Shown piece by piece: positions 38,199 to 63,609 of a DNA stretch of 64,000 nt; the first letter of the stretch is position 1, and each line of letters starts with the position of its first letter. A model generated the notes under the pieces. The model was not told where the DNA came from. It saw nothing but the letters and a program-made list of their open reading frames with translations, and ran no database searches. The DNA is from Schmidtea polychroa (lineage: Eukaryota): positions 200,260,001-200,324,000 of the forward strand of contig CM097885.1 in the NCBI GenBank assembly GCA_044892525.1, given 5' to 3'. A program made the position numbers and the translations under genes.

Positions 38199-41100
38199 TG
38201 TTGGCGTATGTGGAGAAGAAAAATAAATTATACATGCCTTTCCATCACACCTATCAAGCATCATGGCTCCGTTATACATTTTCTACACATACTCCAAATG
38301 ATTGATTGCATATTCCCACATATGAGCCCATGGTGATGTTCCATGTTGGTGCTGCTCACACGGGTCGGAAAAGGTTAGCAGGTGAGCCCCTGCCTTAGGA
38401 CTACTCCTAACCCTTTCTCAGTTCGGGTCCCACGGTGCCTTAGAAGGACTTACCCATATACATGCGTGTCACTCGGTCTGATCCTGGTCCAAAGGAACAA
38501 CCTTCAACCTTAATTATCTTCATTCCGCAGCATTATCTCATCTACTCTAATTGCACAAACAAATATATGAAAGCTCGACAAAACTAAAATCAAACAGAAA
38601 ATTTTATTGACCCTGAAACGATAAAAATATCATTACTACTAACAGATCAACAACAGTCAAAAAGATATAACATTAGCAACATTCACGAGATAATTTACAA
38701 CTCAATGAAGAGGAAATCAAGCTCAATTTTACATCACATTAAACAAAGTTATCCCCATCGGCCAGTATCTCATCTATGTCGACCGGTAATCGGCTATCTA
38801 CAATGTATTTGATGCCCTCAGCTGGAACAATGCGGAAGACTTCCTTTGAGGGGATTGAATGGGAGGACGTTATCTCTTGGATTTTTGATTTCGCCGCCGA
38901 TAAGGACGTCTCGAGTGCTGTCATCGCATCTCGGCGTTTTTGGTTCTTCTCGGCTCGAGTTGGCCGTTTCCGTTTGCGGGTAGTCGGGGGTTTTTCGGTG
39001 TTCGTGGTACCGATTGGTGCTACCAAGATTGGAGCTACGATGGGATCAGTAGGTCCACCTATCTTTGGCTGGTGACATGACAACACCGGGGGTGGAATGG
39101 GCGGCAGTTGTGAGCCGTGCCCCTGGCAGTGCGAGCCGGAAGATGTAGGAGACGGGTGGTGACGAGGAAAGACATTCGTCCCATCCAGAACGGGGAATTC
39201 TCGCACCCGCTTAGCCAATTCTGCCTCCGTATATACCTTATGGAGGGCTTCTGACTGTGCTTTGATGGTGAGCCGCTGACAACGGCTTTCCTCTAGCAGG
39301 CTGTCCCTGCAATGCTCTAATCGGAGAATTTTCTTGCGTTCCTCTTTCATTTGTGGCGGGGAGAACCACGTTCCTTCATAGAGATCAATTCTCTTTTTGA
39401 GAGCCCCGATATATAAGTGGAGTTGGGCGATATCCGCGTTCTTGTCCGCACAAGAAAAACACGGGCGAAGTTCTTTGGCGTTGTTGGACGATGTAGCCAT
39501 CTAGAAAATCAATCATTGTTTATATTTACTCGAAGAAACCTCTATCAGTGTGAAGAAAAATCAAATTTTTGGGCATGGTTTTGGAGTTTGATCAAACATA
39601 CCACCCAACGATGACCCACACACTTCTTCATCCATCTCTATACGCAGTCATTCAGTTGCAAACATTCAAATCTCTTCACCTGATTCGTGTAATTTAAGAA
39701 AAGGAAACGGGGATTCGTATACCAAAAATTCTTTCTACACAAACCTCGCCCTTTGAGTTTAATTTCGGATGGGCCATTCCCAGGTAAAACCCGTCTTTTA
39801 CTTTATCCCCTTCAACCTTGTTCCCATTAGTATATTTTAATTAAGAATTTTTGCCGATATCATTATGGCAATTCGTCGAGGTAGGCCTGCCTAACATTAC
39901 AGAGAAATAATTCACGGCGACGGAATAGATTATTTATGTTTTTATCTCGTTCAAAATTATGGAATTGATCGTGTAATCAGTTGAAAATTCAGCTCTAATC
40001 TACATCTAATTAATTCCAATAACGCGTCGAAAATCGTCGTCATGGAAAACGTTTACTTGTGATTATGCATTATGATTGACTGTGTAGGTGTGTCATTACT
40101 CCTGGTGGTATCTGTAACTGTATGTTGGCTATCTCCGCGAATGATGGTTTATGCTGTTATGATAAATTATTGTATATCGAGTTGTGTAGGGGAAATCCAT
40201 CCCCTTACTTCATCCTATTATCTCGCTATTCTAGAGAAATTTATACCATCATGCCGCTATTACATCACCAAAATCGTTGATTTCCTTTTACACTGCCCTA
40301 TGCATATTTGACTGTGGTGCGTGTGTATGTGCATGCTCAAGTCGGAATATTAGCGGTTGCGTAATAGATTCCTCAAATAAGCAGCCGTAGATGAATCGAA
40401 AAATCAGATTAATCAATCTGAGTGGGCGACAACTTCATAGATTATTGGGTAAGCTCAACAATATCATCTAATTTCCTTTTACGATATTAATTCAGATCAA
40501 TGACTATCAGCTTATTCATTTGACATTTTCCCAGAAAAGTTAACATGTTATCTCCTTCTCCAGGACGTTATCAGATATCTCCTGTCGACTAACTCTACGC
40601 AGGCTAATGCAAATCAACTGATTTCGTTATCGTTGACAACTACTGTCTGCGGGCTCGAAGTAAGAATTTTGATAATTTCACTACAAGATGTTTACTTCCC
40701 TGTCAGCGAGAGATTCTTTATCACTGGCATTGGTGACTCAAGGACGACAATCAAATCGTAAGAGTACATCGACAATGGATGTAGCCGCTAACATCATGAC
40801 GGCACAAATCAGACAGAACCTTGCAAACGCAGAGCGTCACCGAAAAATCGTTGGATTTACTTGCAATCTATGGTCGACACCGTTCTTTCCTAACTACGTC
40901 GATTGACCGGCTGAATATCACGAAAAGAATTTTCCTCCTATCTATGTGGATTATCATCGAATCTGTACGAACGTCACTGCCTATCTCGCTCTGAATTGTC
41001 TGCATTCGGAATTCAAATCATCTCTACATCTACTGGAAATCTCGATTTAACTAAATGAACCGATGGTACGCTCTACAGACGATCGCGCTTGATGAAGGAA

Positions 41101-42433
41101 CGGTCATTTATTAACTGGATGTTCCACCTACTGAGTTTCTTCACCCCTCACGACACACCCAAGAAGGCATTCATTGCTGCCACCTCCTTGCACCGTCATG
41201 AGGGACCAATCAACTCTTTTCCATTCAATCAAATCAACAATATAATAATCAAACTGAATGATAGAAAATGCATAAATAAAATTTACCCGGCGACCATATC
41301 ATTTGGATCTCCGAGTATGATGTTGCTCCTCCTACATGATCGAAACCTCATCGTCTCCTTGGTGGATCTCTAATATGACAAATATCACTCTCTACAAATA
41401 TCACATTCTCTTTTCAGCATGTTCGTGATTTCTTATGCATACCAACCTTTCCACGGTGGTGTCCTCTACTGCAGTGCAATTCCAACTCGTCCACATCATA
41501 CTGGGAGCTCTCAGATGGTACAGTCGTCGGTACCATGAAGAAAGGCAACTTTTCATTTAAATAAATTTATTATAAGAAATTGTTTTATTATATTTATAAT
41601 GATTAACTAAATTAAACTAATAACCATAAATAAAACAACTGTCGAGGCATACCTTGAGTTTCGAAAACTGAAGTTAAATCGGTTGAATTTAAAATTTTTC
41701 CCGAATGGATTTGTAGTTTGGCCTCTATATATTTCTTCCTCGGTTTGGTTTGGTAATCTCTGAACTAGTTCGCTGTAGGATAATTAAAGGTTCCGAAATC
41801 TGTCAAGTCTGTAGAAAAATTTTTTAAAAGTGGTAGTATATAACGAACCGAAGTTTACCTGTAGAAAAATTTTTTAAAAGTGGTAATCTACAGATATTTT
41901 CCGTTCCTTATATATTATTTTTCGTCCAATCAGGACACGACTTGTTTGTATTTTTACTATTTATTATTATTTTTATGTTTTTTATTATAATATATTAGAT
42001 TTTAATGACTTAACTTATTTCCTATTATTATTTTATTTATTTTCTTATTTTTATTATTTTCCTCCTATTTTTCCTGTGGATTTATTGCTACTTTATTGTA
42101 ATATAATTTTTTGTTTTAATTAGACTTAAAGATAGTTTTATTTTTTATTTATTTCTTAAATTTCTCTTTTATTTGTTGTCACTTTTTTACTTATTTTATT
42201 CTATTTCATCTGCTGGGTCCTAAATCGCTTTATTTCTAAATCTCAAGGGGTTTATTGGGTTTTATTTAGTTTGTTTTACTTATTCTTATTCTCTTATTGA
42301 TATTTTATTGTTCCTTTTTGATTTATTAGCGAGAATTTGATGGTACTTTATATTTTTATTTTATTTCGTTTATTTTTCAAGGATTACTTTTCTATTCGCT
42401 CCAGTTTTCGAAACTCCACGTTTTAGCCCAACA
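38199..42433 (-). repeat. Putative 3' LTR, 4235 bp
   Basis: Bounded by TGTTGG (38199) and CCAACA (42433). TATA-like sequence near 41730, AATAAA near 41570, 27-bp direct repeats 41809-41835 / 41859-41885. The second LTR is not in the window and the PPT is non-canonical. Confidence 0.65.
38739..39500 (-). CDS. LTR-encoded hypothetical protein (CxxC, coiled coil, Pro-rich, basic NLS-like stretch)
   Basis: 253-aa ATG-initiated ORF in GC-richer sequence; CFSC, RKRKRPTRAEKNQKRR. Confidence 0.65.
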   Translation of the reverse strand: MATSSNNAKELRPCFSCADKNADIAQLHLYIGALKKRIDLYEGTWFSPPQMKEERKKILRLEHCRDSLLEESRCQRLTIKAQSEALHKVYTEAELAKRVREFPVLDGTNVFPRHHPSPTSSGSHCQGHGSQLPPIPPPVLSCHQPKIGGPTDPIVAPILVAPIGTTNTEKPPTTRKRKRPTRAEKNQKRRDAMTALETSLSAAKSKIQEITSSHSIPSKEVFRIVPAEGIKYIVDSRLPVDIDEILADGDNFV

Positions 42434-42664: not shown

Positions 42665-43291
42665 TCACATGATCTCAAGGTTCGGAATGTCTTGGTTGGT
42701 TGAATTCTGGGTCGGATGGCTGGTTGAAGTTGTTATCGTGGGGAGCTGGATTGTAACAGGCATTTGGTCAGGAGATAGATTTTGTTGCATTTGGTCGGGT
42801 GGGTTTGGTTGTTGAAAATGTACTGCTCGTTTATGTTTATTTTTCGATCGTGGGTTCTTTCTTTCGTGTTTCTCGGATAGTGACTGGTTTCTTCTCCATG
42901 TTCGATGAATATCATACGCTTTCCAGATGACTAGTGCGCAGATGATAAGGGTTTCACTGATGGTAGTATAGAGTAAGACTTGGCTTTCTTTTACTTCCTT
43001 CTTCATGATGATTTCCTTCAAGGATTGTTGGGTGGTTTGTTCTTGTAAGAGAATTTCGAGCTGTTCGATTTTTTGGGTTTGTAGGTGGAGTTGCATTTGA
43101 AGTTTTTGCCAGACGGCTTTGTTCCAGCATTGTTTCGGGATGTTGTTGGAGAGCTTTCTTTCGCTTTTCAGTTTGGTTAACGGGTTTTGCTGTTTCTCGG
43201 GATTCTCCCAGAATGTTGGGATTGGCTGCCACATGGGTATTCCGTTTATCGCTATCATCATTATTGTCACCAGGGTTGCTCCGAACCACAT
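42665..43291 (-). CDS. Accessory type I membrane-like protein
   Basis: Hydrophobic N-terminus MWFGATLVTIMMIAING, coiled coil, TM-like LLYTTISETLIICALVIW, basic and Q/P-rich tail. Confidence 0.7.
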   Translation of the reverse strand: MWFGATLVTIMMIAINGIPMWQPIPTFWENPEKQQNPLTKLKSERKLSNNIPKQCWNKAVWQKLQMQLHLQTQKIEQLEILLQEQTTQQSLKEIIMKKEVKESQVLLYTTISETLIICALVIWKAYDIHRTWRRNQSLSEKHERKNPRSKNKHKRAVHFQQPNPPDQMQQNLSPDQMPVTIQLPTITTSTSHPTQNSTNQDIPNLEIM

Positions 43292-43346
43292 ACTACTATA
43301 CGAAAATTTTTATTTACAATTATTTACATTGATCATTCATCTTTAA

Positions 43347-44048
43347 TTATTGCCGGGTTTTCTTTTTACGGGTTTTCTCGGATGTTCTCATCACTCTCGT
43401 TTCTGCTTTTATTACTCGTTTTCTCAATTCGGGTAGTACTTTTAATTGTTTGTCTCTTTCGTCTAACTGTTGCCTTAGGGTTATTATTTTTTCTTTTAGT
43501 GCTTTTATTTCTTGTGTTGCTCTTTCGAGGTTTTTATGGTTCATTATCTGTAGAAAATCATTTTCCCTTTCCCCGTCTTCTTCGTTGTCTATTTCCTGGT
43601 ATTTGTTGTTCATTCGTCTCATTATCTCACATTCTTTCTGTTTTTGGTGTAGTTGGAGTTGTAACTCTTTCAGGCTTTCTTGGTGTTTCCGTGCCTCGGT
43701 TTTCCAATAGTCACTAATCACTTCGTCGGCCTTTCGACTGGCCCTCTCCTGCCATAATTCTTCCGTGATCTTTTCCCAATTTCTCCCTCGCTTTCTTTGC
43801 TCGTGAAGCCATTCGTTTTCTTCCTCTACTTCTTTCTTTACTCCTTCTAACAAGATATATTCTCTTTTCAATACTTTAATCATTTTTCGATTATCTCTCC
43901 ACCTTTCAACTAATCTTTCGTTTTCCTGTCTCTCTTCTTGTAATTCTTCCTTGATAGTTTTCTTCCTCTCTACTTCATCAACTTCAATTTCTCCCTCTTC
44001 TAACTCGATTATAGATGTTATGCTGGGTTGTCCGTTTTCAGTGTTCAT
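43347..44048 (-). CDS. Accessory coiled-coil protein
   Basis: 233-aa ATG ORF, E/K/R-rich heptads, upstream TATAAGC. Confidence 0.75.
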   Translation of the reverse strand: MNTENGQPSITSIIELEEGEIEVDEVERKKTIKEELQEERQENERLVERWRDNRKMIKVLKREYILLEGVKKEVEEENEWLHEQRKRGRNWEKITEELWQERASRKADEVISDYWKTEARKHQESLKELQLQLHQKQKECEIMRRMNNKYQEIDNEEDGERENDFLQIMNHKNLERATQEIKALKEKIITLRQQLDERDKQLKVLPELRKRVIKAETRVMRTSEKTRKKKTRQ

Positions 44049-44222
44049 TTTCTATAATATATACATAATTAATAATTGCGCTACAGTGCGGCTTATACTT
44101 ATACATTTATATGTTATTTTATAATCAGGGTTACAGTCCCTTTCATACTTTTACTGTACCATTAATTTTTTTGGTTGGGATACAGGTCCCGATTTTTATA
44201 TTTTTTATCTTTCCTTTTATCT

Positions 44223-45260
44223 TTATACAAAGGTCTCTTCCTGGCCTACATATCCCTCATCGCTTTCTACTGACGTTTGTAATTGGAGTGCGATGGGATC
44301 AAATGGGATGTAGTACCGGGGAATCTGCGCTCTAAGTTCTTGCACTTCGTCTCTTAGTGCTCTTGACACGTTAAGTTCCTCGTCCAACAGGTATGTTAGA
44401 TACCTGGTTTCATCGTCTCTTACCTCTATCTGTTTTTCTAGCTCTTCCGCTTTTTCGCCGTTTTCCCATTTCTTGATCTCTATCTCCAGATTTTTAAGAT
44501 TTTCGTTATACATTTTCCTTTCGTTTTCTAACTTTTTGTTTTTCCCCGCCAGTACCATATTTCTCTGCTCCAGAGCTCCTTGGTATCCGTTGACATCTCG
44601 TTCTAGTTCTGCGACCTTATTCACCAGTTCCACGAGTCGTCCTGACTGTTGAAGTATCAGTTCTTCCATTGCGGCATTCTCGTGCTCCCTTATGGAGATT
44701 TTCATGGCTAGATGTCTTTCAAATTCCATGGCTTTGGTCTGCCATGTTTGGCTTCGGGTCGCAATCTTTCTGAGCCGTTTCAGTTCTTCTCTTATGACCA
44801 GATTTTCCTCCCATTTGCCTTGTTCGCTTTCGTATTCTAATCTCATAGGCAATTCTTTCATTTCTTTTTTCATCTCTTTGTTCTGCCGCTTCCAGTTTCG
44901 GGCTTCTGCCAATAGGTGATTCATTTTCCTTCCTTCCTTTTGTTTTTCTGCTTCTCGTTTTGTGTTTTCGTCCGTCAATCGTTTCCGTGCTTCCTGCACT
45001 AACTGTTTTAAATAGTGGCTGTGCGCTTCTTGGCGAGTGTTTTCCAATGATGCCCACTTAGAGGCTCTTTTGCATGCTTCTGCTTCGGCTCTTAAATTGT
45101 TTACTAACCACTGATATTTGTTATTCTCGTATTCCCTGGCCTCTTCGAGATGGTTGTGGGTCTGGTTCGTCAATTGTAACATTACTTTGACCCATTTTCC
45201 CTTATGGATTTTATTGACTTTGGTTTCGTGGTTTGGGGCTTCAGTTCCTTCTTGTGTCAT
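44223..45260 (-). CDS. Accessory coiled-coil protein
   Basis: 345-aa ATG ORF, long heptad repeats, upstream TATAAGC. Confidence 0.75.
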   Translation of the reverse strand: MTQEGTEAPNHETKVNKIHKGKWVKVMLQLTNQTHNHLEEAREYENNKYQWLVNNLRAEAEACKRASKWASLENTRQEAHSHYLKQLVQEARKRLTDENTKREAEKQKEGRKMNHLLAEARNWKRQNKEMKKEMKELPMRLEYESEQGKWEENLVIREELKRLRKIATRSQTWQTKAMEFERHLAMKISIREHENAAMEELILQQSGRLVELVNKVAELERDVNGYQGALEQRNMVLAGKNKKLENERKMYNENLKNLEIEIKKWENGEKAEELEKQIEVRDDETRYLTYLLDEELNVSRALRDEVQELRAQIPRYYIPFDPIALQLQTSVESDEGYVGQEETFV

Positions 45261-45480
45261 CTTTGTCTAAATAACGATATCATTAACTTAACGTTGTACG
45301 CTTATATCTGGTTTATTATTTATTTATTTTTATAATTCGTTATAGGAGTTGTTTTAGGAGTTTTTCGCTTAAGTTTACCTTTGGTAGATTTGGGGGGAAT
45401 TTTTCTACACTACTATATAATATTTTACTGGATATATACGCCGATATTTACAATTAGTATATACAAAATTATTCGTCTCT

Positions 45481-46869
45481 CTACTCAGTCCTACCCTTCC
45501 CGTCTCGCCTCACCGCTATTTTCATGTATATAGTGTCGTTTCTCGTCATGTCTTCTACTTTCCGCTGTAGGATGAAATTTGGTGCTCCAGTTGCTGGTCC
45601 TTCTTCTTCCAAGGGCCTTTGGTAACATACGAGGTTTCCCGCTGTATGGAAACTCTGTTCGTGTATACTTTGATAGTTCATCATTGCGAGGTCTATTTTT
45701 GCTTTGAATGGCCATTCTATTAACTCGTCGTATGGCCCTTTGCACATCAAGAAGAATACTGAGAAATGCGTTCCGTATGCACTTCCATCCCCATTGGGGT
45801 ATGCTTTCATTTTCATTTTATACCCGTTTTTCCATGAGTAGAATGCTGGACTTAGTAATGTTGTATCCTTTCCATTTCTCGCTCTCTGCATCTTCTCTTT
45901 TACTCCCGTTATTTTCCATATGTACGGAGCCGTAGGTATTAATTCGTTGAGGTTTAATTCGCTTACTTTTTGATGTAGTTCTTTCACCATAATGTTGCTA
46001 GTTTCTACTAGATCTGTCTGTATCTTTGTACTTGTTCTCGCCTCTTCAAATGCTTCCTTTTCTTCCAATAGTTCTTTTACCAACGCTTTTAGCGAGACTA
46101 TTTCTCTTTCTAAGTTTTCGGTTTTCCTTTCGTTTTCCTGTAATACCGTTGACCATATTTCCGCGTGTGTTGATACGTTTTCTGCTAGATGTTGGGGTAA
46201 TTCCCCTCGGTGTAATTGTTTCGGACATCCCCATTTTCCTAGCACACACGTTATCTTTTTTCTTTCACACTCTTTTAGATGTTGAGCGAGTTTTATTACT
46301 CCGGGTTTATCGCATTTGTTGGGGCATTCTCCTCTGAATTCTGCGCACACTTTCTCCTCTTGTATGTTGTGATGTTGACTGATTAGTTTCTTCCAGGTGT
46401 CGTTTTCTCCGCAATACTCGCATTTCTCTAGTCTTTCTTCGCATCGACTTTGATGTTCTGCTTCTTCATTGACTTTAATCTCTTCTTGGCAACGTTTGCA
46501 TTGACTGATTTTATACTCACATTGCTCCATATGTTGCCTCACTTCCCATATCACTCCTCGCCAATTACATGGGGTGTTTTTACATCCTAGGTTTGCATTC
46601 AACATATCTTTTACAGCTGCTTTATCTTCGTTTGTATCTCCCAAACTTGTTATCATTGTTTCTTTGCATACTGGGCACCATTGTGGTCCCTTCTTTATTA
46701 TCTCCTCTACACATTCTCTGCACATTCTGCATCCACATCTGGTTTGGTGAGGTTCTCTTAATAAGCTCTTGCATATTCCACACGTTACATGGTTGTGTAT
46801 TCGAATTGTGGTGGACTTTCTGATTTGTTCAACAATTTCTCTGAATTCTTCTCGTTGTCGCTTATCCAT
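45481..46869 (-). CDS. TRAF: TNF receptor-associated factor homolog (RING - TRAF zinc fingers - coiled coil - MATH), intronless, inside the retroelement
   Basis: CGIC...CGCRMCREC...CPVC RING; CKNTPCNW...HMEQC and CEYC zinc fingers; MATH YIWKI...SPAFYS...GYKM...YPNGDGSAYGTHFSVFF...GPYDELIEWPF. Confidence 0.93.
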   Translation of the reverse strand: MDKRQREEFREIVEQIRKSTTIRIHNHVTCGICKSLLREPHQTRCGCRMCRECVEEIIKKGPQWCPVCKETMITSLGDTNEDKAAVKDMLNANLGCKNTPCNWRGVIWEVRQHMEQCEYKISQCKRCQEEIKVNEEAEHQSRCEERLEKCEYCGENDTWKKLISQHHNIQEEKVCAEFRGECPNKCDKPGVIKLAQHLKECERKKITCVLGKWGCPKQLHRGELPQHLAENVSTHAEIWSTVLQENERKTENLEREIVSLKALVKELLEEKEAFEEARTSTKIQTDLVETSNIMVKELHQKVSELNLNELIPTAPYIWKITGVKEKMQRARNGKDTTLLSPAFYSWKNGYKMKMKAYPNGDGSAYGTHFSVFFLMCKGPYDELIEWPFKAKIDLAMMNYQSIHEQSFHTAGNLVCYQRPLEEEGPATGAPNFILQRKVEDMTRNDTIYMKIAVRRDGKGRTE

Positions 46870-46958
46870 TTCTATAATTATATGTATACATATATTCGTT
46901 ACTGGTACAGTTTCGTATTTTTATTTACATTTATTTACATTGCTATTTTAGGTTATAT

Positions 46959-47342
46959 TTATTGGCTGGAAGAGTCGGCCTCTTGTCCGCCCTCTTCCCT
47001 GTTGGTTAACCATTCTGACCAGTCTTCTATCTCCTCTCGCTCCATCTCTTCCGCGATTCTTATTAACTCCTCTTCTTGCACCTGGCTGTATCGTGATATT
47101 CGGTCTATCTCTCGCTGCATTTGTTCTATTTTCATTCGTTGGTCTTCGATTATTCTTACATAATTGAAGCCTTTATTTAAACTTTCGACTAAGCTTCTTT
47201 GTACAGCGAGTCCTTGTTCCTGTAAATTCGAAATCACTTGAGTTAACATTGCACATTGTTGTTTCCACATCTCCTCGGTTGTTGTACTGTGGTTTACTTC
47301 CTCGCCTATTCGCTCCATTCTTAATTTATATATACTTTTCAA
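46959..47342 (-). CDS. Small accessory coiled-coil protein
   Basis: 127-aa ORF (TTG start; first Met at 47318), acidic W-containing tail, upstream TATAAGC. Confidence 0.6.
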   Translation of the reverse strand: MKSIYKLRMERIGEEVNHSTTTEEMWKQQCAMLTQVISNLQEQGLAVQRSLVESLNKGFNYVRIIEDQRMKIEQMQREIDRISRYSQVQEEELIRIAEEMEREEIEDWSEWLTNREEGGQEADSSSQ

Positions 47343-47486
47343 TCCTTATCTAATTTTATTTTCATATTAATTATCCCCATCATTATATACTATTGATACC
47401 GCGCTTATATAAAAATATAGAATACTGTTATATAAATAAATATTTCCTACTTACTTTTTACAATCTATATACAGTCATAATCCTTT

Positions 47487-50400
47487 CTATATACGTGAGC
47501 TTGGAGGGCGCTGAGCATTCCAGGCCTCCACCCACTGTTCCTGCTTGATATTACTTGGTCGTTTTACACGATGTTGAAAATTTCTTATTCTGGCCATTTC
47601 TAGTTCTCCGTGATGCCGTCTATCTTTGATTATTTTTATTGTCCCCCCCGTTATGATTAAAAAGGCCCCTGTTATTATTATGCCGCTGATCCACATCATC
47701 TGTTTTATGCTTATAATTTCCGCTTTTTCCTTGCTCGTTATTGTTGATATTGCTTCTGTGCTTTTTAGATTACCGTCTTTGCCATTTCCTTTCATCATTC
47801 CTCGTATTCTTGCTATTTCCTCGTTCATACCTTCCTTTGCCATTTTTTGTATTTTCTCCATCTCCTCCTCGGATACATAATTGTCTTGATGTTTCTCACT
47901 GTTTTTCTTGCGTTTTCCTTGCTCATCTTTTTCATCATCGATTTTTCTTTTCTTCCCTCTTTTCCCAGGGTATCGTCGACATTCTCTCGCTGTATCTTTT
48001 CTCCAGATGCATATTGTGTATTCTTTTGGAGGTTGTTGCTGTATTACATATTGTAGACAGTCTTCACCCGGTCTTAATCTTGCGATGCAGACTTTGTGTT
48101 CTTTTCTTGGCTGGAGTTGCGTTATCACTACCTCACCTCCTTTTCCCAGGTGTACCTCCTTCCCTTTGACTTTCGTTATTCTCTTTCCTTCTCGATTTCG
48201 GTATGCTTCTTGTATTCTTACTTCCGTTATTGGTTCTGCATCTTCATTTTTTAACACTAGTCTCTGATAAGCTCTAGACATACATCTTCCTAATATACAC
48301 CTTTCTTTTAAATCCCATTCTTCTTTTAGATCCCATTGCTGCTCTTGTACTTGTTTTTTCTTTTCTTGTTTTAGTTCTTCCTCTTTGTTGTCCTTATTTT
48401 CCGTTTCTTTGGCTTCTTTTATCGTTCTCATTCCTCCCTGGGCTGTTATCATTTCCACCATTGTTAGTACGAGTATCATTATCATCATATTTGTCTCCAT
48501 TTCTTTGTTGGTAAAAAGTAGGCATACCCTCTGTTTTCCACTATTCGTCTTTTCTTCTTGCTTCATTCGGTTTCTCGGGTTATTTTCCTCTTTTTTCCTA
48601 CTCGCGTCGTTATTTTCTTGATTATTCTCCTCTGATTTCTCTTTCTCTTTATTCCCGTTTCGACCTTTTTCATTATTATCGTCGTCTTTATCGTCTTTAT
48701 CGTCTTTATCTCCCCCGCTATCGTTTAAAATGTCGTCCTCGACATTTATATCATTCAACAATCTGCGGTATGCCGTTAGCACTCTGTTTCTTGCTAATTT
48801 TGCTTCGAGTTCGAACTCCTTTCTGCCTGTTGCTACATGTCTCTTTCTATTCCATTCTTTCACTAATTCTCTTAATTGTATCCGACGATGTTTCCCGATT
48901 CGCTTTTGTTCGTTTAGATTCTGCGTGAATTTGAGATCTTCCCTGTTTAATACGATCATTATGATTTTCGGAGTTCCTCCTTTTGTTAGTGTATTTTTAA
49001 CCATAGCATTTTCTCCGTTTTCGTAGAACTCATTTATATTTATTGCATATTTATTGCTTTGTGGTATTCTCCATGTTAGCAGCAACTTCATGGCTTCTAA
49101 GTTCATCCGTATCGTGTTCCATTGGAACTGTGACGTGTTTTTACAGATATTTTCTACCTCAGTTCTTGTAGCATTTTTACAAATGAATCTAATCATTTCC
49201 AAGTTTGGTTGTATTGTTGCCCAATCCATGGCAGAATTTCCTTCGTTTGATATTTCGTCAAGTCTTGATCCCGATCGATGTAGTATATGTAATGTTTTCG
49301 GGTGTATATTTGTTATGGCTGCATACATCATTGCTGTTTCTCCTTGTTCATTTTTTGCATTAGATTCTTCTCCGAAGTCTCTAAGGATTCTTATGATGGT
49401 TATTGCTCTGTTTTCTTTTGCTGCTAAAATGGCTTGTTGTAATGGTGTTCTTGAGTCTTTTGTTGGTAAGGTGAATGCTAGTGGTATAAATGTTTTTATT
49501 TTTCCTATGTCTAGATTTGTGGTCTGATCTCTTGCGTAGGTGTGTACTGTTTTGGTTATTTTTGCTAGTATCGCTTCATCGGATAGATCTTGCATTTCTT
49601 CAAAGAATACTTCTTTAGCCTTACGTACTACTATCTCTTGGTCGGAGTTTATTGTCTTTGGTTTACTTGTTGTTGCTATATCGGTTATTGGTTGATCGAC
49701 TTGTTCCTCAGACTCTCTTGCTTTTACTTTCTTCCTTTTTATCTTTTTCTTGTTCGAATTGTTAATGCGTTCCTCTGCCGTTAGAACTTGAATAATGCTT
49801 AGGTAAGTTTCTCGAATGTTGTTCATATTTTCCATCATATATAATACACTCACGGTTTCCCAAAATTTTACTTGTACTTTATCGGTAAATTGAGATATAG
49901 CTTTTTCGAAGTTGATAATTCGTTTTCTGATTAGTTGTTCGTCTTTGTGATTTGAGAACTTTATGCCACGTTGTAGTAGTTGATTTGGAATTTCGAATAG
50001 GTGATGTCCTCTCATCGCTTCTCTCATCAAGGTATTTTCTCCTTTGGTAAATGTTTCGTTTATATCTACCATATAATCGTTTTTGATCGGGTTCCTCCAT
50101 GCAATTAGTATTCCAGTAATTGTTATTAATTTCTCTTTGATTGCAGTTAATAGCCCGTCATACATGTTTCCTATCTCTCTATTATCCTCATATGATAATA
50201 GATCTACTAAGATTATGAAGGCTTCCGTACTTTTCCCTTCGATTGCATGATGTAGTGCATTTTTCTGGTTGTGGTCTTGTGTGGTTATCTTTGACCCAGT
50301 TTCAAGTAATGCGATGATAATATCTTTAGCTTTATCCCGATTGGCTGCTATCATTAGTGGAGTGTAACCTTGGTTGTTTTCTTGATCTGTCGAAATGTTA

Positions 50401-51566
50401 CAATCGCGAAATGCTTCAATTGTTTCTAATATCTGTTCGTTACTACCCACCTTTAAAAGCTTGTGCAGGGGTGTGTCTCCGTAATGGTCTGTGATCGTGA
50501 ATAATATAGGCCATTGACTTTTAACTACCCTGAGCAATGGGTGTGTTCTTTCTCGGTTTGCATAATTTTCGATCATTGTTAGCAGACCTCCCAATATCTC
50601 AAAATCTAATCTGTCTTCTGCCCATCCGGGCATTTTAACTTTTACTTCCTTTATGATTTTCTCGGCTTCTGATGGTTGTAACCCTAATCGATTACCTGTT
50701 GGTTCGTTTATTTGCTGTAACATGTTTATTCTATACGTTTGTGATCTTGTCGTTAGTGTACGTCCTTCTGGCTGACTGGTGGCGGTTTTCGGAATTGGCT
50801 TACATCGTGCAACATTTACGTATATTGGTCTTGTAAAAGGGTTGTTCACTAATCGTACTCTTACATTAGTTTCTCCGACGAATAGAATCTCATACGGCCC
50901 TTTACCGTTTCGTTGTAATTTTTTGGTGGTTCCTGGAATTAATTCTGGTGTTTCAATCATCACCCAATCGCCTGTTTGAAACGTATGCTGTTTGACGTTT
51001 TTCTTTCTATCATGTAACTCTTTGTAACTTTCTTGATAAAATTTTATATTCAATCCTGCGGTTTCCCAGATTTCCTGCATTCTTTCCTTGAACTTGGTTA
51101 CATAATCGTCTATTTCCATGTATTGTGATATCGGTGGCTGATATTCTAAATCCATTGGCATATTGCATTCTCTGCCGTACATCAACTTGAACGGACTCAT
51201 CTTTGTGGACGCGTGAATCGACATTCTGTAAGCCATTAGACATAATTTTATATATTCATCCCAGTCTCGTTGATGACGATCGACATAATTTGATAACATT
51301 TGAATCAGTGTTCCATTGAATCTTTCTGTCATACCATTAGTTTGTGGATGGTACGGTGATGTTCTTAATTTTGCGATCTTGAAGTAGTTGGTGACTTCGC
51401 TCATTATTTCGCTCATGAAATTCGTTCCTTGATCCGTCAGTATTTGTTTCGGCGTTCCATATCGACAACATATTTCCTCTACTAATATTTTTGCGATTGT
51501 TCTTGCTTTCTGATCTGCCATTGCGAATGCTTCGGGGAATTTTGTCAAATAATCTGTGATTACCAA
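47487..51566 (-). CDS. Polyprotein C-terminal part: integrase core, two ankyrin-repeat modules, signal/TM-anchored protein
   Basis: ITDYLTKF, LTDQGTNF, TERFNGTL (DDE); KGPYEI; GDTPLH, GYTPLMIAA, GETAMMYAA ankyrins; MMIMILVLTMV and WISGIIITGAFLIITGG hydrophobic segments. Confidence 0.93.
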   Translation of the reverse strand: MVITDYLTKFPEAFAMADQKARTIAKILVEEICCRYGTPKQILTDQGTNFMSEIMSEVTNYFKIAKLRTSPYHPQTNGMTERFNGTLIQMLSNYVDRHQRDWDEYIKLCLMAYRMSIHASTKMSPFKLMYGRECNMPMDLEYQPPISQYMEIDDYVTKFKERMQEIWETAGLNIKFYQESYKELHDRKKNVKQHTFQTGDWVMIETPELIPGTTKKLQRNGKGPYEILFVGETNVRVRLVNNPFTRPIYVNVARCKPIPKTATSQPEGRTLTTRSQTYRINMLQQINEPTGNRLGLQPSEAEKIIKEVKVKMPGWAEDRLDFEILGGLLTMIENYANRERTHPLLRVVKSQWPILFTITDHYGDTPLHKLLKVGSNEQILETIEAFRDCNISTDQENNQGYTPLMIAANRDKAKDIIIALLETGSKITTQDHNQKNALHHAIEGKSTEAFIILVDLLSYEDNREIGNMYDGLLTAIKEKLITITGILIAWRNPIKNDYMVDINETFTKGENTLMREAMRGHHLFEIPNQLLQRGIKFSNHKDEQLIRKRIINFEKAISQFTDKVQVKFWETVSVLYMMENMNNIRETYLSIIQVLTAEERINNSNKKKIKRKKVKARESEEQVDQPITDIATTSKPKTINSDQEIVVRKAKEVFFEEMQDLSDEAILAKITKTVHTYARDQTTNLDIGKIKTFIPLAFTLPTKDSRTPLQQAILAAKENRAITIIRILRDFGEESNAKNEQGETAMMYAAITNIHPKTLHILHRSGSRLDEISNEGNSAMDWATIQPNLEMIRFICKNATRTEVENICKNTSQFQWNTIRMNLEAMKLLLTWRIPQSNKYAININEFYENGENAMVKNTLTKGGTPKIIMIVLNREDLKFTQNLNEQKRIGKHRRIQLRELVKEWNRKRHVATGRKEFELEAKLARNRVLTAYRRLLNDINVEDDILNDSGGDKDDKDDKDDDNNEKGRNGNKEKEKSEENNQENNDASRKKEENNPRNRMKQEEKTNSGKQRVCLLFTNKEMETNMMIMILVLTMVEMITAQGGMRTIKEAKETENKDNKEEELKQEKKKQVQEQQWDLKEEWDLKERCILGRCMSRAYQRLVLKNEDAEPITEVRIQEAYRNREGKRITKVKGKEVHLGKGGEVVITQLQPRKEHKVCIARLRPGEDCLQYVIQQQPPKEYTICIWRKDTARECRRYPGKRGKKRKIDDEKDEQGKRKKNSEKHQDNYVSEEEMEKIQKMAKEGMNEEIARIRGMMKGNGKDGNLKSTEAISTITSKEKAEIISIKQMMWISGIIITGAFLIITGGTIKIIKDRRHHGELEMARIRNFQHRVKRPSNIKQEQWVEAWNAQRPPSSRI

Positions 51567-54500
51567 TATATATATATATTTCCTCTATCTGATTCTGGTA
51601 GTGGACCGACTACGTCCATTGATATCATTGTCATTGGTTCTGCTGGTACTGGCATTGGCTTTAATGGTGCCTTCCATTTTGTTCCCGTGTTTTTTCTGGT
51701 TGCGCAAGTTATGCAATTTTTCACCCATTCCGTTACATCCTCGGTCAATGTAGGCCAAAAATATTTTTGTTTCATTCGTGCCAACGTCTTTTTAGATGAC
51801 ATATGTCCTCCGAGTCTTCCGTCATGGTATTGTGTTAGTAGATCTTTACGTCTATTCTCGGGAATGCACATTAGTCTTTTCTCGCCATCCATTATCAATA
51901 ACCAATCTTTCTCGATAATATATCGATGTCGATGTTTATCCATATGCTCCTTCAATTTTTGATCTTTCTCATATACCTCTGCTTTCCCTGTTTTCACATA
52001 TTCAATGATTTGCTTCAACTCTGTATCCTCTTGTTGGTCTTTCCGTAATTGGCAAAAATCTAAATCTTCTGCTACCATCAGACATATTCGTTGCATTTCG
52101 TGATCTACTAAATCTGGAAAGATAAATCTGGACATACAATCCGCATTGGCATTCGCTCTTCCCGCTTTGAATTTTATGAACGGTGAATATTCTTGTAACT
52201 GCATTGCCCATCGCATCAATCTACTTGAAGCTTCTTTGTGTTGACCAAGCCATACTAATGGTTGATGATCCGTGGTGATACATATTTCGTGTCCCCATAA
52301 CAAATATCGAAAATGTTTAATTGCTTGTATGATTGCTAACGCTTCTCTCTCGGTTACGGAATAGTTTTTCTCGTGCTTTTTAAACGTTCTACTGTAGTAT
52401 CCAATCACTCTTTCTTTTCCTTCTTCATCCAGTTGTCCTAATATTGCTCCGGCTGCATATCCACTTGCATCTGTTGCTAATAGGAACGGTTTCTTGAAAT
52501 CAGGATGTACTAGTATTGGGGCTTCAATTAATTTATCTCGCAATGTCTCAAACGCTTTTTGTTGTTCTGCACCCCAAATAAATGAAATATCCTTTTTCAC
52601 TAATTCCTGTATTGGTTTCGCAATACCTGCATAGTTTTTGATGAATTTTCGATAATATCCGCATAATCCGAGAAATTCTTGAACTTGGGTGACAGTTTTT
52701 GGTGCTGGACATGTTTTTATTTTTTCTATGTTTCTTGGATCTGGTTCTTTGCCTTTTGCTGACACTATGTGTCCTAAGAACGTAACCTTTTCTTTTGCCC
52801 AATCACATTTGGATGGTTTAAGTTTCAGTTTCCATTGTCGTAATCGAACGAACACGTTTCTGATATCTTCCAAATGTTGTTCGAAAGTTGCTGAATATAT
52901 TAATAAATCATCAATATATACCATACACTGCTTGATCCCGTGTGTGACAAAATTCATACATCTCTGGAATGATGCTGGGGCATTGGTCAGTCCGAACGGC
53001 ATTTTCCTGAATTGGTATAGATCTCGGCCCAATGTGAATGCTGTTTTCTCTTTGTCTTCCTCCTTGACTTTGATCTGCCAATATCCACTTTTCAGATCTA
53101 AAGATGTAAAATATGCGGCCCCCTGTAACATAAGTAACATCTCATTGATGTCTGGTAAAGGGTATGTGTCTCTTTTTGTTACTGCATTTAATTTCCGATA
53201 ATCGATACAGAATCTCTGAGTACCGTCTTTTTTCTTCACCATGACTACTGGAAATTGCCATGGCGAACAACTTGGTTCGATCACTTGTGCATCTAGCATT
53301 TTTTGTACTTCTGCTTCGGCTATCTCTTTTTGCTTCTCTGCTAGTTTGTATGGACGTAGTGCGATTGGAGTTTCGTCTATTAATGGTATTGCGTGTAGTG
53401 TAACATCGCATGCTCCCAAATCTAAATCCGAAATTGCGAATATATCTTTATATTCTATCAATAATTGTTGAAGTCTCTCCTTTTCTTTTTCCGTTAGCAA
53501 GGTGCTATCAATTATCCATAATTCGTCCGCTTTCGTTGTTTCGTTGGTGATTTTTGGTAATTCGATGTCTATCATGGGTGTCAATCTACCCAATCTTTCA
53601 TTTTCATATATGATCTTGTCTTCTTCCTCGAAATTTGTGATGTTAATTGGTATTTCCCCGTCTTCATTTATTGTTATTATTTCTCTTGCTAATGGTAATT
53701 CTCGTCGTTTTTCGAATGATTTGCTTGGCTCAAAAATGACTTCTCCTTCCATTCCTGCATCCACTTTTATTTGACATATCATCTGTGATTTTGCGGGTAC
53801 AATTATTTTCTCCGGACATCTAATTATTGCGTTCATCTTGCATATTCTACCCATTTTGTCTTTTAGACACATTGTTGTTAAATCGATTACTACTTCCTTA
53901 AACAATTCCGGCATTAAATCCGTTCCGATTATACATGGTTCACTCAGTTTGGGTATCACCGCTAGATACGTTTCAATTTCGTTATCCTGATATCGTAACG
54001 TAGTCCACCATCTTCCTACTACGTCTACGGTTTCTTTACTGCATGCAATAATATGGATAGTTGTTTGTTCGATATCTTTCCAACATTTACTGGGTATTTG
54101 GTTTATTGCTATTGCTGATACGTTTGCTCCGGTATCTATCATTGCGCTTGTCTCTTTCCCGTTGATTTGGATCATGACTGTTACTGCCGCACCTCCTGGT
54201 GAACTCATCACTGCTATCGTTCTTACGTCGTCCGCTTGGTCTACACTTTTCGTTCTTCGGGTCGGCATATAGTTCATCCCTGGTTGACTTGGTAACTGTG
54301 GATACCTATTTTGTGTCATGGTCAAAGCTGTTTGTTGTCCAACGATATCTGGTGGTATATAACTTCCGTTGGCTATCCAGGTATTTGTTTTTTCTTTCTC
54401 CCAATATGGTGCTGTTTCTATTGGCTTTTCATTCGGGTTTCTACTTGGATATGGGTATTTGTCATTCCCGTTGTCGTCATCATCACTATCGCTGCTGTTT

Positions 54501-57500
54501 GATCGATTCCTAAATCTGTCTAAGAATTTTGGTTTGTTCTTTTTCAGTTGCGTCCTTGTTGCTTCATCATACATTGTTTTCCGAAATCGTCTACCGACTT
54601 CCTCGTCAGTTCCTTTTATTTTTGTCAGTATTTTGATCAATCGTTTTATTCTATGTATGTCTTTAGAATGACCGTGCAACACCATTGTTTTTGCCAAAAA
54701 TGGTAGAAAGCCTACTATCAATTTCCAATTTACCTTCTTTTCTCTCTTATAGATATCAAAACACGCTAACATTTGAGTCAATATTACTCTAACTATCTGG
54801 ATAATAAGAATGATTCCCAATATTCCTGCCATCATTTGACCGAACACTAGAAATCTTCCCCACATTGCTTTCATCATGTTTGACGTGGCTTGTTGAAAAT
54901 GATCAGGTGACAATAATAGTTCGTAATTGGGGCCTGACTGGAAATTCGTTCCCCCAGTTATGGTAACCATATTCGATAGAATGGATTCCCGTCTTGCTGG
55001 GAATAATACGTTTAATCGTGCCGTTTCTAAATCCTCTGGTGAGTACATACCTGTTTTTGACACATCAATTGGTTTGAAATCTTGTTCTGTTGCGAGTTCT
55101 ATTAGTCCAAACTTTTTAGGCTCTTGTACTTCGGTTTTTACTGGTAACATTATCCATTTCCCATCGGGTTTTTCATATAACGGTCCGTATGCATTTGAAC
55201 AGTTAAAGGTGTTCGGATAAAATCCAATTGGGTTCATGATTCGAGTGACGGGTTGAACGAATCTGTTTCGCCCTTTGTAACTAATTTCCAACTCGTTTGC
55301 GCATTTCCCTGGTGGAATTGTGGGCTTTCTTGGCAGTCGCGCAAATGTCTTGGTACATGCATATGTATACATTACCTCTCCCACCATTCTACCAAAATGT
55401 CCATCCGGTAACGGGAGTGATGGCATTGTGTTATCTGGGTGTGTTATTGCGATGGCTAATTTTGTTTTTAGTATCTCTTTATTCAATGAACAGTCATTTT
55501 GTATAAGATCGTAATACACTTTTTGCATTGTCGTTTGTCCTCGGTGGAACAAGAAGTCCATCTTATTATTGGCATACAGGTACAATTTTACGTCCTCCGT
55601 TGCTACCTTTCCCACTGCTCGGTCTATTACTTGCCTTGACATGTAGATACCTGCGTAGTTCGTCCGGTATACTATACTGTCACATTTGGTGGTCTCTTTT
55701 TCTCTAATGAATCTCATGCCGATGTCTGGATCATCGGTAATTAATGCCGTTGGTGTTTTTTGGGTTGTGAGTCTCTTTTCTTTGGGGGATGGCGGAACTG
55801 GTTTCCCATTTCGCATCCTTACGTTTCCATTCTCTTCATCGTCATCCTCGTTTTCGTAAATTTCTCCTTTTACTTCATTGAATAGAGCACTTTTTAACAA
55901 TTGGAGTCGGCATTTTTGGGTGTTAGCTTCATATATTATAGTCGAAATCCCCGTTCTACACACGTTTTCCGTAGCTCTGCATGCTGGGTTGGTTTTCATT
56001 TGATAGTTGTTTGCGTCGAATTGTGCTTCGTATTCCTTCAACTCCACTGTGTAGGACTCAATTACTACTACTCCTGATATCACCTCTCCTCTGATCGTAT
56101 ATGTGCCTCCGTTACATGATCCATCCGTTGATTTTACTCGTCCGGCTACATAGATACTTTCCGTCTTGATCATTCCGCTTTGTCCGTGTATTGTTACTCC
56201 ATCCCTGATTCTCATCGCTCCGGTTCTAAAAAGCTCTTTACAGTCTTCCCGTTGTATAGGTACTATTTCTTTATCTAATCCAGGTAATATGAGGGTTGAA
56301 TATGAGTATTGTCCACAGTAATATGCCAACACTTTCTTCGATACTACGCATTCTCTAGCTTGCGTTCTAATGAAATCTGATTCTTGGTATACGTGATAGG
56401 AGACTTTCTTTTTTACTATATCTAATTTATTCGGAGACGCCTGTCTACATTCCTCTATATCTCTCAGGGAGTATCTTTCTCCTATTATCGAATTGTCACA
56501 GTCGTAAATAGTAAATCCCGCGGCTCCACTGGTGCAGAGCATCCATATCATCATGGTCATCATTAGTGAATTAATCGACGCTTTTCTGCTGGCTGGGTCT
56601 TTCAATGGCAATTCCCATTCTAGCTTGTTTAGTAATTTCTTCAACCGAATTTGCATTGATCTCTCTTGCTCGTTTTTTCGTGGCGCTTGTATGAGTCTTT
56701 TCCACCCACCGGCGCGGATAATATGTGGTTCGATTGTATTTTCGATGATTGTAACGGTCATTTCTACATGATTTGCGAATTGTTTGTTAGGTATTTTCCT
56801 CGCTGCTAATCCCATCAAATTGTACATTAGATACGTTAATACTACTAAATGATGTTCGTCGTCGTTTGCGTTTAAAGTTAATTGTTCAATTACTCTTCTT
56901 GTCTCTTCCCAATCGGTTTTAGTGGTTTTTGTCTTCTCTTTGATTAATTTCGGAATTATTCCGGATATTGTATTCCATAGTTGTCTGGCGTCTACGCTTG
57001 CTACTTTTCGTTGCCATAACCGTCGCAATTGTGGGTTCGTTATTATTAGCATATCTTTTACTAGCTCTCGTATCCATTTTTCGCCTCTTTCGATAGTTGG
57101 CTGGGCCTCTTTTAGATCCCACACTATTTTATCCAGTTTCTCTAATCTGACTTGTCCTTGTTCTTGTTTCAGTTGTTCTCTAGTTTTAAATTCCGGTTTT
57201 TCTCCTTGCTTCTTGGGTCTCCCTTTTGCCCGTTTTTCCATCATTGTTCCGGCTTCCCTTGTATTTTCATAATTCGGGTTTCTCTCGTTATCCGTTCTTG
57301 GCAATGAGCTATCGTTGTTTCTCAGCCATTCGTTCCATTCGTCTATTATTTTGTCCGTTTGACCTTCTGGTGTTGCTTTCGTTGGTCCTTTCTGTCGTTG
57401 GAATTGTTCGTCGGTTTCGGTTTCTGTTGTATTATCGATAATCTCCTCGATACTCAGCTTATTTGGCTGCTGATAGCTAGTTGACGGTTGGCTTGTTGTC

Positions 57501-61924: not shown

Positions 61925-62591
61925 TCATTCCTTTTTGCCACATTCAAGCACAGACACCGTTTTAGGGCCTCTGTTATACTTCTCTTCATTTCCCCTCATA
62001 CACTTCTTCGCGGAATATAATTACCCATCAACCCATATTTTTCGTCGATTTTAAATTATCTATTTGGGGTAGTAACAATTATCTATATAGTCGTATAAAT
62101 TATCTATAGTTAGCATTTATAATATCGATAGGTCGTTGTCAGTTACTGCTTATTACCTCCCATATTTTCTTAATCCTTTTACGCGGTTCCGCTATTTTAC
62201 TTAATCTTTCATCTCTGTTTCCCCTTATTTGGTTCTACTCTGTAACCAAAACAAAATTCGTTTAACCGGTTTAAACCAAAAAAAATTCTGTAGAACTTTG
62301 TCTACTTATCTGGGATCCCTTTTAATTAATTAATCACCTTCCTCTTTTACTCATCACTTATTCTTTATTTTCATTATCTCTTTAATTCATTTTCCTTTTC
62401 AGTTTCTCTTTCTCACTGAAAAAAAAATTTCATTATTACCTCCCACGAGCTCGTTTAATCCTTTCTAAATTCAAATACCATATTTCAAACTCACTTTGCT
62501 TCTAGCTAGCTTTAATATTCCATCTCACTAGTAATTTAAATGTTATCAACTTGTAGCTTGAATGCTATCTCACTATTACTTTAGGCCTTTA

Positions 62592-63029
62592 CGACTGGCT
62601 GGCACTTTTCAACAGCTCAATCTTCTTCTCCTGACCGGTTGGACTATTCAACAACTCGATCTTACGACTGGCTGGCACCATTCAACAGCTCAATCTTCTT
62701 CATCTCCGAACTGGCTGGACTTTTCACAGCTCAGTTTTAATTTTTCCTGACCGGCTGGACTTTTCAACAGCTCGGCCTTAATATCTCCGACTGGCTGGAC
62801 TTTTCACAGCTCAGTTTTAATTTTTCCTGACCGGCTGGACTTTTCAACAGCTCGGCCTTAATATCTCCGACTGGCTGGGCTTTTCACAGCTCAGTTTTAA
62901 TTTTTCCTGACCGGCTGGACTTTTCAACAGCTCGGCCTTAATATCTCCGACTGGCTGGACTTTTCACAGCTCAGTTTCAATTTCCCTGACCGGCTGGACT
63001 TTTCAACAGCTCGGCCTTAATGTCTCTAA
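62592..63029. repeat. Tandem array of ~40-bp monomers organised as 80-bp dimers, in the internal leader upstream of gag
   Basis: Four near-perfect 80-bp units 62711-63029 plus three diverged monomers 62592-62710. Confidence 0.95.
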
Positions 63030-63609
63030 ACTCTGCATGCTTCCGTTCCTTTTCTGTCTTTATTCTATACTGTCATCTTCCTATTTTTACTTTTATTTGT
63101 CGACTTAATCTGTACCGCTTTGGAAGGTTTCCCCTTTCCCCCCTTGCTTAAAACGCAAAACGATCGCATTGATCCATTTCTACATTGGTATGGTGATCAG
63201 CCATACCGCAGAAACTTTTCAATATTCGCGATGGTACCTCGCCTTACATCTCTTACTCGGGGTGATCGGTTGTCCCTTCCCAAATGGTTCCAATATCGTA
63301 CCTCCCGAAGGTGGCTCGGTTTATTCCCCCTTTAGCACTATGATGGGACTAGTTCCACTTTAAATAATCAATTTAAATTTTTAAAATGCCCTTTCTTCAT
63401 GGTGAAAATTATAACAACACAAATCGATTTATAACTTCGTATAATGAAATGAATACACAGAAAGGATTTATTAGTTATTTACTCCACATTACAGATAATA
63501 TATGCTATCATTATAAAACATTGCCGAATTAATTCAGAACAAAAATATCAAAAATGTTTAATCTAATTGTTAATCATCCAGTTTCCTTCACCGAGCGACG
63601 ATCGCATAC

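Follow-up and report, generated by a model that had tools for sequence, protein, structure and literature searches.

The TRAF gene reported here lies in a 64,000-nt stretch of Schmidtea polychroa DNA (hereafter the window; assembly GCA_044892525.1, contig CM097885.1, positions 200,260,001 to 200,324,000) and is carried by a Burro-type gypsy LTR retroelement. Judging from sequence comparisons, we consider it probable (roughly 0.6) that it is a long-resident Burro accessory gene, likely captured once and likely kept as a pro-survival TRAF adaptor and E3 ligase for cells that express the element. The initial annotation had described an intact, intronless RING-zinc-finger-coiled-coil-MATH gene between the polyprotein and the 3' LTR; this is borne out by the frame, which is uninterrupted from ATG to stop over 462 aa on the minus strand, by Pfam and solved-structure matches, and by the LTR pair. 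The gene and its domains are laid out as follows.

45481..46869, minus strand: accessory ORF 2, full-length TRAF, 462 aa (ORF list, Pfam, solved-structure matches, predicted model, Foldseek)
46666..46782, minus strand: RING domain, residues 30-68 (Pfam, alignment)
46165..46584, minus strand: TRAF zinc fingers, residues 96-235, including an H-x(n)-C insert of triclad type (Pfam, structure matches, alignment)
46006..46176, minus strand: coiled coil/TRAF-N, model helix 232-288 (predicted structure)
45511..45924, minus strand: MATH/TRAF-C domain, residues 316-453 (Pfam, structure matches, alignment)

The domains of the TRAF family are present, with a C-terminal MATH domain, an N-terminal eight-ligand RING, and zinc fingers and a coiled coil between them. 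Pfam places TRAF-mep_MATH and MATH_2 at residues 316-453 (E 8e-25; PF21355 at 88 bits versus a cut-off of 27.4) and zf-C3HC4 (PF00097) at residues 30-68, the latter just above its cut-off (22.6 versus 21 bits); the zf-TRAF_2 match falls below its own cut-off, and the Cys/His columns of the zinc-finger region are invariant or almost so among 24 aligned TRAFs. For the C-terminal half, the top solved-structure matches are the TRAF domains of TRAF3 and TRAF2 (E 5.5e-28 to 2.4e-27), and for the N-terminal part they are RING-zinc-finger constructs of TRAF6/TRAF5 (E 8e-15 and 2e-13). A model predicted from a 24-sequence alignment (mean pLDDT 85.6, pTM 0.45) folds residues 232-288 into a helix and 316-455 into a beta sandwich, and TRAF3/TRAF2 rank first when it is searched with Foldseek. 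All eight RING zinc ligands are Cys (C30, C33, C45, C47, C50, C53, C65, and C68), with Cys at position 47 in place of the usual His. This substitution was rejected as an element-specific mark, since Cys is also found in two outgroup rows and in most host TRAFs of the genome (9/10 of the single-frame genes examined and 13/14 of the two-exon ones). In the MATH groove, K355-x-Y357 and D361-G362 are retained, each in 48-49 of 49 copies, and loop 409-415, the Pro-Asp/Ser loop before Y416, is remodelled, unlike in all 21 non-element rows; the Pro at alignment column 409 occurs in 21/21 non-element rows versus 0/3 element rows. Given this remodelled loop, binding to host receptors is not to be assumed, and the partners of the protein may have changed.

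The carrier is delimited by a pair of 4,235-bp LTRs that differ at 2 positions, have TG...CA ends, and are flanked on both sides by ATAG (a 4-bp duplication); the element is therefore 30,585 bp long and very young. Its other parts are given below.

38199..42433, minus strand: 3' LTR, 4,235 bp (LTR comparison)
42665..43291, minus strand: accessory ORF 5, 208 aa, two hydrophobic stretches (ORF list, variant counts)
43347..44048, minus strand: accessory ORF 4, 233 aa, no family (Pfam)
44223..45260, minus strand: accessory ORF 3, 345 aa, coiled-coil-like, no family (Pfam)
46959..47318, minus strand: accessory ORF 1, 119 aa, helical, no family above cut-off (Pfam)
47487..51521, minus strand: polyprotein part 2, 1,344 aa, integrase core and ankyrin repeats (Pfam)
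51560..61369, minus strand: polyprotein part 1, 3,269 aa (Pfam)
61370..64000, minus strand: 5' leader, with 34/40/80-bp tandem repeats at 62589-63026 (repeat analysis)
L031:1549-5783 (window-equivalent 64549-68783), just beyond the window: 5' LTR (LTR comparison)

The polyprotein spans 61369-47487, and the five accessory ORFs (119, 462, 345, 233, and 208 aa, the TRAF being the second) lie between it and the 3' LTR. Part 1 holds gag, CCHC, a Monjiviricetes-type fusion glycoprotein, protease, RT, RNase H, and an integrase zinc domain, together with weak ubiquitin-like and Bcl-2-like matches; no MATH domain was found in it. The Bcl-2-like match is sub-threshold in this lineage (E 0.019), and a solved-structure search with the same stretch returned no match. 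Programmed frameshifting at the integrase break was rejected because the frame, broken in the window copy, is open there in 28 of 30 fetched loci; the break is either private to the window copy or an assembly error. Among the other accessory ORFs, the 119-aa ORF has a homolog in the same place in Burro1-type copies, a label that we apply to the genome's 4,791-aa MATH-bearing element and that rests on a match to the published domain order. The 345-aa ORF, for which an atlas search gave no family, likewise has a homolog in Burro1-type copies and is constrained (pN/pS 0.08 for shared variants), and constraint on the 208-aa ORF is weaker (pN/pS 0.36).

Some further observations concern the same locus. 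A 253-aa ORF without a family lies inside the LTR (38739-39500), so that the element has two copies of it; the insertion site borders an (AT)n run (L031:1524-1548 and 5784-5815); and a putative tRNA-Pro-like sequence 7 nt after the 5' LTR is presumably the primer-binding site. Between 45300 and 47400, 72-81% of sampled words are present in runs under two different organism codes, which may come from mixed labelling or from a subfamily that more than one species has. Elsewhere, the window holds a Polinton/adintovirus-like remnant at 1-4981 and a transposase ORF:

1204-1986: A32-type ATPase of the remnant (Pfam)
1983-3386: integrase with a phospholipase A2-like domain, in the remnant (Pfam)
3849-4688: double-jelly-roll capsid fragment of the remnant (Pfam)
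4821-4981: 80-bp tandem repeat of the remnant (repeat analysis)
16268-17380: Tc5/pogo-type DDE transposase ORF (Pfam)

Fragments at 31413-32733, which we take to resemble a Penelope-type endonuclease/RT, are enclosed by inverted repeats (31482-31749 and 32473-32733).

The TRAF is not confined to this one copy, as the initial annotation had allowed that it might be. The window's subfamily has at least 104 TRAF copies, a sister subfamily whose TRAF is 69% identical has at least 92, and Burro1-type elements, with a TRAF 33% identical to the window's, have at least 90, giving at least 286 element-borne loci in total. A protein search of the genome with the window TRAF scored 92 of 1,872 candidates, so that these counts are lower bounds; all 92 scored matches are full length at 91-100% identity and 84 are without stops. 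An exact 29-mer occurs at 79 places in the genome, 12 of them absent from the protein-search list. Stops are likewise rare in the other lineages (91 of 92 scored sister copies are free of them, and 0 of 90 scored Burro1-type copies have any). That the gene is carried by a retroelement, as had been proposed, is evident from the LTR pair and from the 50 fetched subfamily loci (among the 92, the 30 highest-ranked plus 20 of the bottom 22), all 50 of which lie in element context, as do 7 of 7 opened loci of the sister subfamily. In the four Burro1-type loci opened, the TRAF is whole and in the same position, after the homolog of the 119-aa ORF. The Burro1-type polyprotein is 57% identical to the window's element over the env-pol region, and its own MATH domain (L074:493-954) lies outside the group of accessory TRAFs in the MATH tree, albeit with weak placement, which suggests a second, separate capture. 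Burro1-type copies also have an intact 392-aa BIR+RING IAP ORF directly after the TRAF (L075:2043-4786). No IAP/BIR ORF stands beside the TRAF in the window's own lineage, where, with the Bcl-2-like match below threshold as well, the TRAF-IAP module is thus incomplete.

The dN/dS comparison called for by the initial annotation gave about 0.1: the element TRAF is under purifying selection, like the polyprotein, with RING and MATH constrained alike. Between the window TRAF and 49 other copies, shared variants comprise 67 nonsynonymous and 148 synonymous changes (pN/pS 0.11) and private variants 70 and 77 (0.22), with the ankyrin part of the polyprotein giving 0.10 and 0.30, respectively, over 19 copies; multiply changed codons, of which the TRAF has 42, do not enter the pN/pS ratios. 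Pairwise dN/dS among four divergent TRAF copies is 0.10-0.14 (RING, 0.06-0.12; MATH, 0.07-0.10), and a comparison of the window TRAF with the sister subfamily gives a dN of 0.18 at saturated dS. Zinc-ligand cells of the alignment are changed in 7 of 1,372 cases versus 724 of 21,266 other cells. Copies were chosen by protein score, which biases the sample to intact copies and lowers dN; however, the frame has been kept across saturated dS and at 33% identity, and retention is thus independent of this ranking bias.

With respect to origin, a search of 1.84 billion representatives gave Dendrocoelum lacteum TRAF-2 (33%) as the best single-domain match, followed by other Dendrocoelum and Dugesia TRAFs, and a word-index homolog search returned only 19 unnamed TRAFs (23-29%). 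Element TRAFs form one clade in full-length trees (support 99/99 with 44 rows; 91/90 with 39 rows; 98/95 under a mixture model with 34 rows, 5 of the 39 having been left out), nested in a triclad-type TRAF clade (100/98-100). A MATH-only tree, for which 60 of 82 rows were kept (near-duplicate copies and 10 of 19 ENA proteins were left out), recovers the element accessory clade at 85/77. In agreement with this clade, Burro1-type elements and the window share the same upstream ORF and the same 89-nt spacer before the TRAF. The phylogeny that had been suggested as a check therefore resolves the element TRAFs as one clade inside the triclad radiation, but it puts no host gene within that clade in any unconstrained tree; nor was a host sister gene recovered with support, and the element branches are long. 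A derivation of the element TRAFs from the planarian host TRAF radiation is supported by these trees, and a single capture from a single-exon planarian TRAF appears likely. Third codon positions are A in 48% of cases in the element TRAF and 46% in the polyprotein versus 35-37% in four host TRAFs, and such an element-like composition points to long residence in the element and an ancient capture. As for the proposal that a host mRNA had been captured, the host origin stands, whereas the mRNA route does not gain from the features that might have marked it. The host TRAFs nearest in the tree (L053-L057 and L060) are likewise encoded in one open frame, 454-487 codons long, and hence absent introns are not diagnostic of mRNA capture; moreover, neither a poly(A) remnant nor a host UTR follows the window's TRAF, the 3' spacer having the element's own junction motif. 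Capture during reverse transcription would be the likeliest route for an LTR element.

The initial annotation had also supposed that element-borne copies could account for part of the apparent expansion of planarian TRAFs. This holds for genomic locus counts alone, in which element-borne loci (at least 286) outnumber host-type MATH loci (about 87, from two protein searches in which 150 matches were scored of 1,551 and of 1,496, with classes assigned by rank and frame length) by about three to one. Among the matches listed, 71 of the host-type loci are on chromosome 2 (C2), 59 of these in two clusters (15 at C2:1-6 Mb and 44 at C2:105-125 Mb). Of 38 suspected host loci opened, 36 were without Burro ORF neighbours and 2 proved to be element copies. 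The cluster genes, which are apparently two-exon (introns were inferred from split frames), form their own clade without element sequences (100/100 and 100/99). The expansion of host TRAFs is thus mostly tandem duplication of host genes and not the work of the element; intron-containing paralogs unlinked to LTR elements, which had been named as evidence against the supposition, are largely what the host genes present. One locus, L098, has two MATH domains in a single frame. Published counts include 99-121 MATH transcripts (PMC6109357), 282 contigs (PMC7586133), and a table of RING genes in which 'traf' appears 100 times (PMC8807557). Host loci alone could account for most of the about 100 transcripts, across a possible species gap. 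A published primer for S. mediterranea TRAF-2A/B fits L053, a host locus, apart from 1 mismatch. Exact matches to the Smed-TRAF-1/2 primers in the literature, to one TRAF3 and to one traf6 probe are absent from 112 loci, and for the forward primer of TRAF-1/2 the whole genome has none either. The species or strain may therefore differ from that of the literature, and TRAF-2A/B is the one published planarian TRAF placed by primer or probe. One of the strings searched among the 112 loci is, we assume, mostly cloning adaptor. In piRNA studies, traf and ankyrin mRNAs are reported targets, and traf mRNAs are listed as SMEDWI-3 targets (PMC6824462, in part).

A candidate means of expression emerges from the spacers. 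The accessory ORFs are each bounded by short AT-rich spacers (47319-47486, 46870-46958, 45261-45480, 44049-44222, and 43292-43346 were scanned, plus the spacers of L075 and L094), of which two border the TRAF:

46870..46958, minus strand: 89-nt spacer before the TRAF, with two TGTAAATA motifs 20 and 30 nt past the upstream stop and TAG just before the ATG (motif scan)
45261..45480, minus strand: 220-nt spacer after the TRAF, with two TGTAHATA at 16 and 29 nt, AATAAA motifs, and AG before the next ATG (motif scan)

The spacer before the TRAF has the same length and motifs in the Burro1-type element. Across the spacers of three lineages, TGTAHATA occurs 8, 7, and 10 times versus shuffle means of 0.63-0.72, counts that 0 of 1,000 shuffles reach; matches are on the sense strand (one antisense match in all) and mostly 14-30 nt past a stop, and in 15 of 16 spacers an AG precedes the next ATG at a distance of no more than 8 nt. 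The motif is absent from the LTR and leader and from all 32 host TRAF 3' flanks searched. We take TGTAHATA to fit both the consensus of Pumilio elements and the UGUA-plus-AAUAAA type of 3'-end signal. The motif and the AG may together form an RNA-level junction signal, that is, 3'-end formation with a splice or trans-splice acceptor, or else Pumilio-type translational control, and the TRAF would then be expressed from its own processed mRNA. In one Burro1-type spacer (L075:6467-6613), a long poly(A) run follows TGTAAATAAG, a possible trace of a polyadenylated subgenomic RNA. Contigs of sequencing runs guessed to be RNA cover the window TRAF in part, mostly at 85-99% likeness, as well as the Burro1-type TRAF and IAP; they contain no splice-like joint and are counted here neither for nor against expression. 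No RNA run is among those listed as containing the sampled words of the locus. Contig joints at 43329-46969 were considered as splicing and rejected, as their sides are short, other letters stand between them, and they fall at the repeated spacer motif.

For the role of the protein, termed a signalling modulator in the initial annotation, we infer the following from domains and selection. The TRAF would have been captured once from a single-exon planarian TRAF and then have long resided in Burro; it would be expressed from its processed mRNA by way of the junction motifs as a predicted trimeric adaptor and ubiquitin ligase, and host TRAF/IAP death-and-immunity signalling would be tilted to the survival of element-expressing cells. 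IAP and Bcl-2-like cargo is found in the family and host TRAF-2A/B is required for cell survival (PMC7586133, in part), such that a pro-survival role is the best guess. BURRO1 is expressed and piRNA-silenced, and in the available portion of the same report its RNAi did not ease the smedwi-2 phenotype (PMC8532177); the latter result gives no sign of a strong host effect.

The protein could instead be a dominant-negative or decoy that joins host TRAF trimers or sequesters their partners, thereby damping TBK1-type sensing of element nucleic acids with no direct promotion of survival. The kept coiled coil and MATH fold with a changed groove loop would suit such a role, as would the RING-less MATH domain in the Burro1 polyprotein, and host TBK1 is described as limiting foreign nucleic-acid and transgene expression and inducing TRAFs, including TRAF2/3/5 homologs (PMC13563047, in part). 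Nevertheless, we hold this to be unlikely, as the RING is constrained like the MATH domain (dN/dS 0.06-0.12) with all eight ligands kept, neither of which a pure decoy needs, and the adjoining IAP in Burro1 points to death control. Less probable again is a service to the element's own cycle, through ubiquitin-dependent particle assembly or budding or the turnover of restriction factors, with no effect on host signalling. The fusion glycoprotein and ubiquitin-like stretches that the element encodes, the other accessory ORFs (conserved element-specific coiled-coil proteins), and the remodelled groove are all consistent with this; on the other side, the independently kept IAP, Bcl-2-like, and second MATH modules of the family point to one host pathway (PMC6431247, in part).

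The relationship with host genes might also run the other way, the chromosome-2 cluster genes descending from an ancient element TRAF that the host domesticated and that acquired an intron. Approximately unbiased (AU) tests do not reject a clade of the cluster genes with element lineage A (p 0.087) or with all element TRAFs (p 0.097), although lineage A with L053/L055 is rejected (p 0.023), and the Cys-for-His RING is common to element and cluster TRAFs. Against this, that RING also occurs in the outgroup rows, the free trees keep host genes outside the element clade, the host loci opened are nearly all free of Burro neighbours, none of the 32 host 3' flanks has the junction motif, and the partners of the single-exon host genes are genes of Dendrocoelum and Dugesia; we therefore give this direction little credence. 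Scarcely credible is a neutral hitch-hiker, recently captured or decaying and without function. The listed runs and the RNA-like contigs establish no expression, which would fit such a passenger, but dN/dS of about 0.1, a frame open across saturated synonymous divergence and at 33% identity in Burro1, and the element-like codon make-up all speak against it, and the selection and ligand data largely refute it. We thus retain the pro-survival accessory gene as the preferred reading. A bolder extension, speculative and in our estimate improbable, is that Burro is an env-bearing virus-like element whose operon-like cassette, cut into separate mRNAs at the conserved junction signals, supplies a captured TNF-pathway kit (TRAF, IAP, Bcl-2-like, and extra MATH), acting as a dose-relevant regulator of stem-cell death and immunity that may have founded the host cluster family. 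It is with about 300 intact TRAF copies, three times the host's own number, that the element would have this dose effect in planarian stem cells.

Burro1/GYPSM1 and Burro-2, -3, and -4 of Schmidtea mediterranea (Jurka 2007; Grohme 2018, as described in PMC6431247) are the closest known relatives in kind: elements of more than 30 kb with LTRs, a gypsy-like gag-env-PR-RT-RH-IN-ankyrin polyprotein, and accessory ORFs. The window's element is the same in these respects, being about 30 kb with long LTRs, gag, in-frame env, PR-RT-RH-IN, and ankyrin. The published family features MATH_TRAF_C, BIR, and BCL2-like motifs, and an interference with apoptosis and ubiquitination has been put forward for it (PMC6431247). 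Of these motifs, the window's lineage has MATH, in the form of the accessory TRAF, with Bcl-2 below cut-off and no BIR. Published Burro has MATH_TRAF_C inside ORF1, whereas the window's lineage has neither a polyprotein MATH nor an IAP ORF, and the portion of PMC6431247 on Burro describes no separate whole RING-zinc-finger-MATH TRAF downstream of the integrase such as is found here. A Burro-like element of Dugesia tigrina has an ORF1 without MATH_TRAF_C, which sits in a separate accessory ORF as in our element; that ORF is described as upstream, whereas the window's TRAF is downstream of the polyprotein, the two being compared by description only (PMC6431247). The window's TRAF is thus a fuller form of a known Burro cargo. 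On a whole TRAF in a retrotransposon, or on Burro accessory ORFs, our literature search found nothing beyond PMC6431247, the available portion of PMC11410931 containing no mention of TRAF, and the figures of Grohme 2018 and the Repbase entry may already show the ORF. The literature searched did not turn up the whole IAP after the TRAF in Burro1 or the TGTAHATA and AG signals at nearly all accessory-gene junctions.

Follow-up would be best spent on the junction motif and on the adjacency of TRAF and IAP. The motif suggests an explanation, open to testing, of how five or six downstream genes can be expressed from an LTR element of 30 kb, and the published idea of Burro meddling with apoptosis and ubiquitination now has named, selected, and assayable genes attached to it. 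Two inflators of planarian TRAF counts can also be told apart, namely host-type loci, mostly in tandem clusters, and near-identical element copies, a distinction relevant to gene annotation, to the specificity of RNAi, and to work on piRNAs.

Compared with triclad host TRAFs (Smed-TRAF-2A/B, Dendrocoelum lacteum TRAF-2/-4/-5, and Dugesia japonica TRAF-2-like A), which are about 450-490 aa with a Cys-for-His RING and the zinc-finger insert and fall in one clade with it, the element TRAF is 25-33% identical and differs in its A-rich codons, its remodelled MATH loop, and its hundreds of dispersed copies; the single coding frame is common to it and the host genes nearest in the tree. With human TRAF2/TRAF3 it has the same fold and domain order, but the Arg of RxY is Lys, the Ser triad is Leu-Val-Cys, and a Cys after a conserved Gly is Ala. 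The roles of those MATH-groove positions, like TRAF2-cIAP pairing, are known for the human proteins. Large DNA viruses have host-derived anti-apoptotic genes, such as baculovirus IAPs and viral Bcl-2, and complex retroviruses have accessory genes. As with the viral anti-apoptotic genes, we see here a captured host death-pathway gene under selection in a mobile genome; what differs is that an LTR retroelement carries it and that a complete TRAF is involved.
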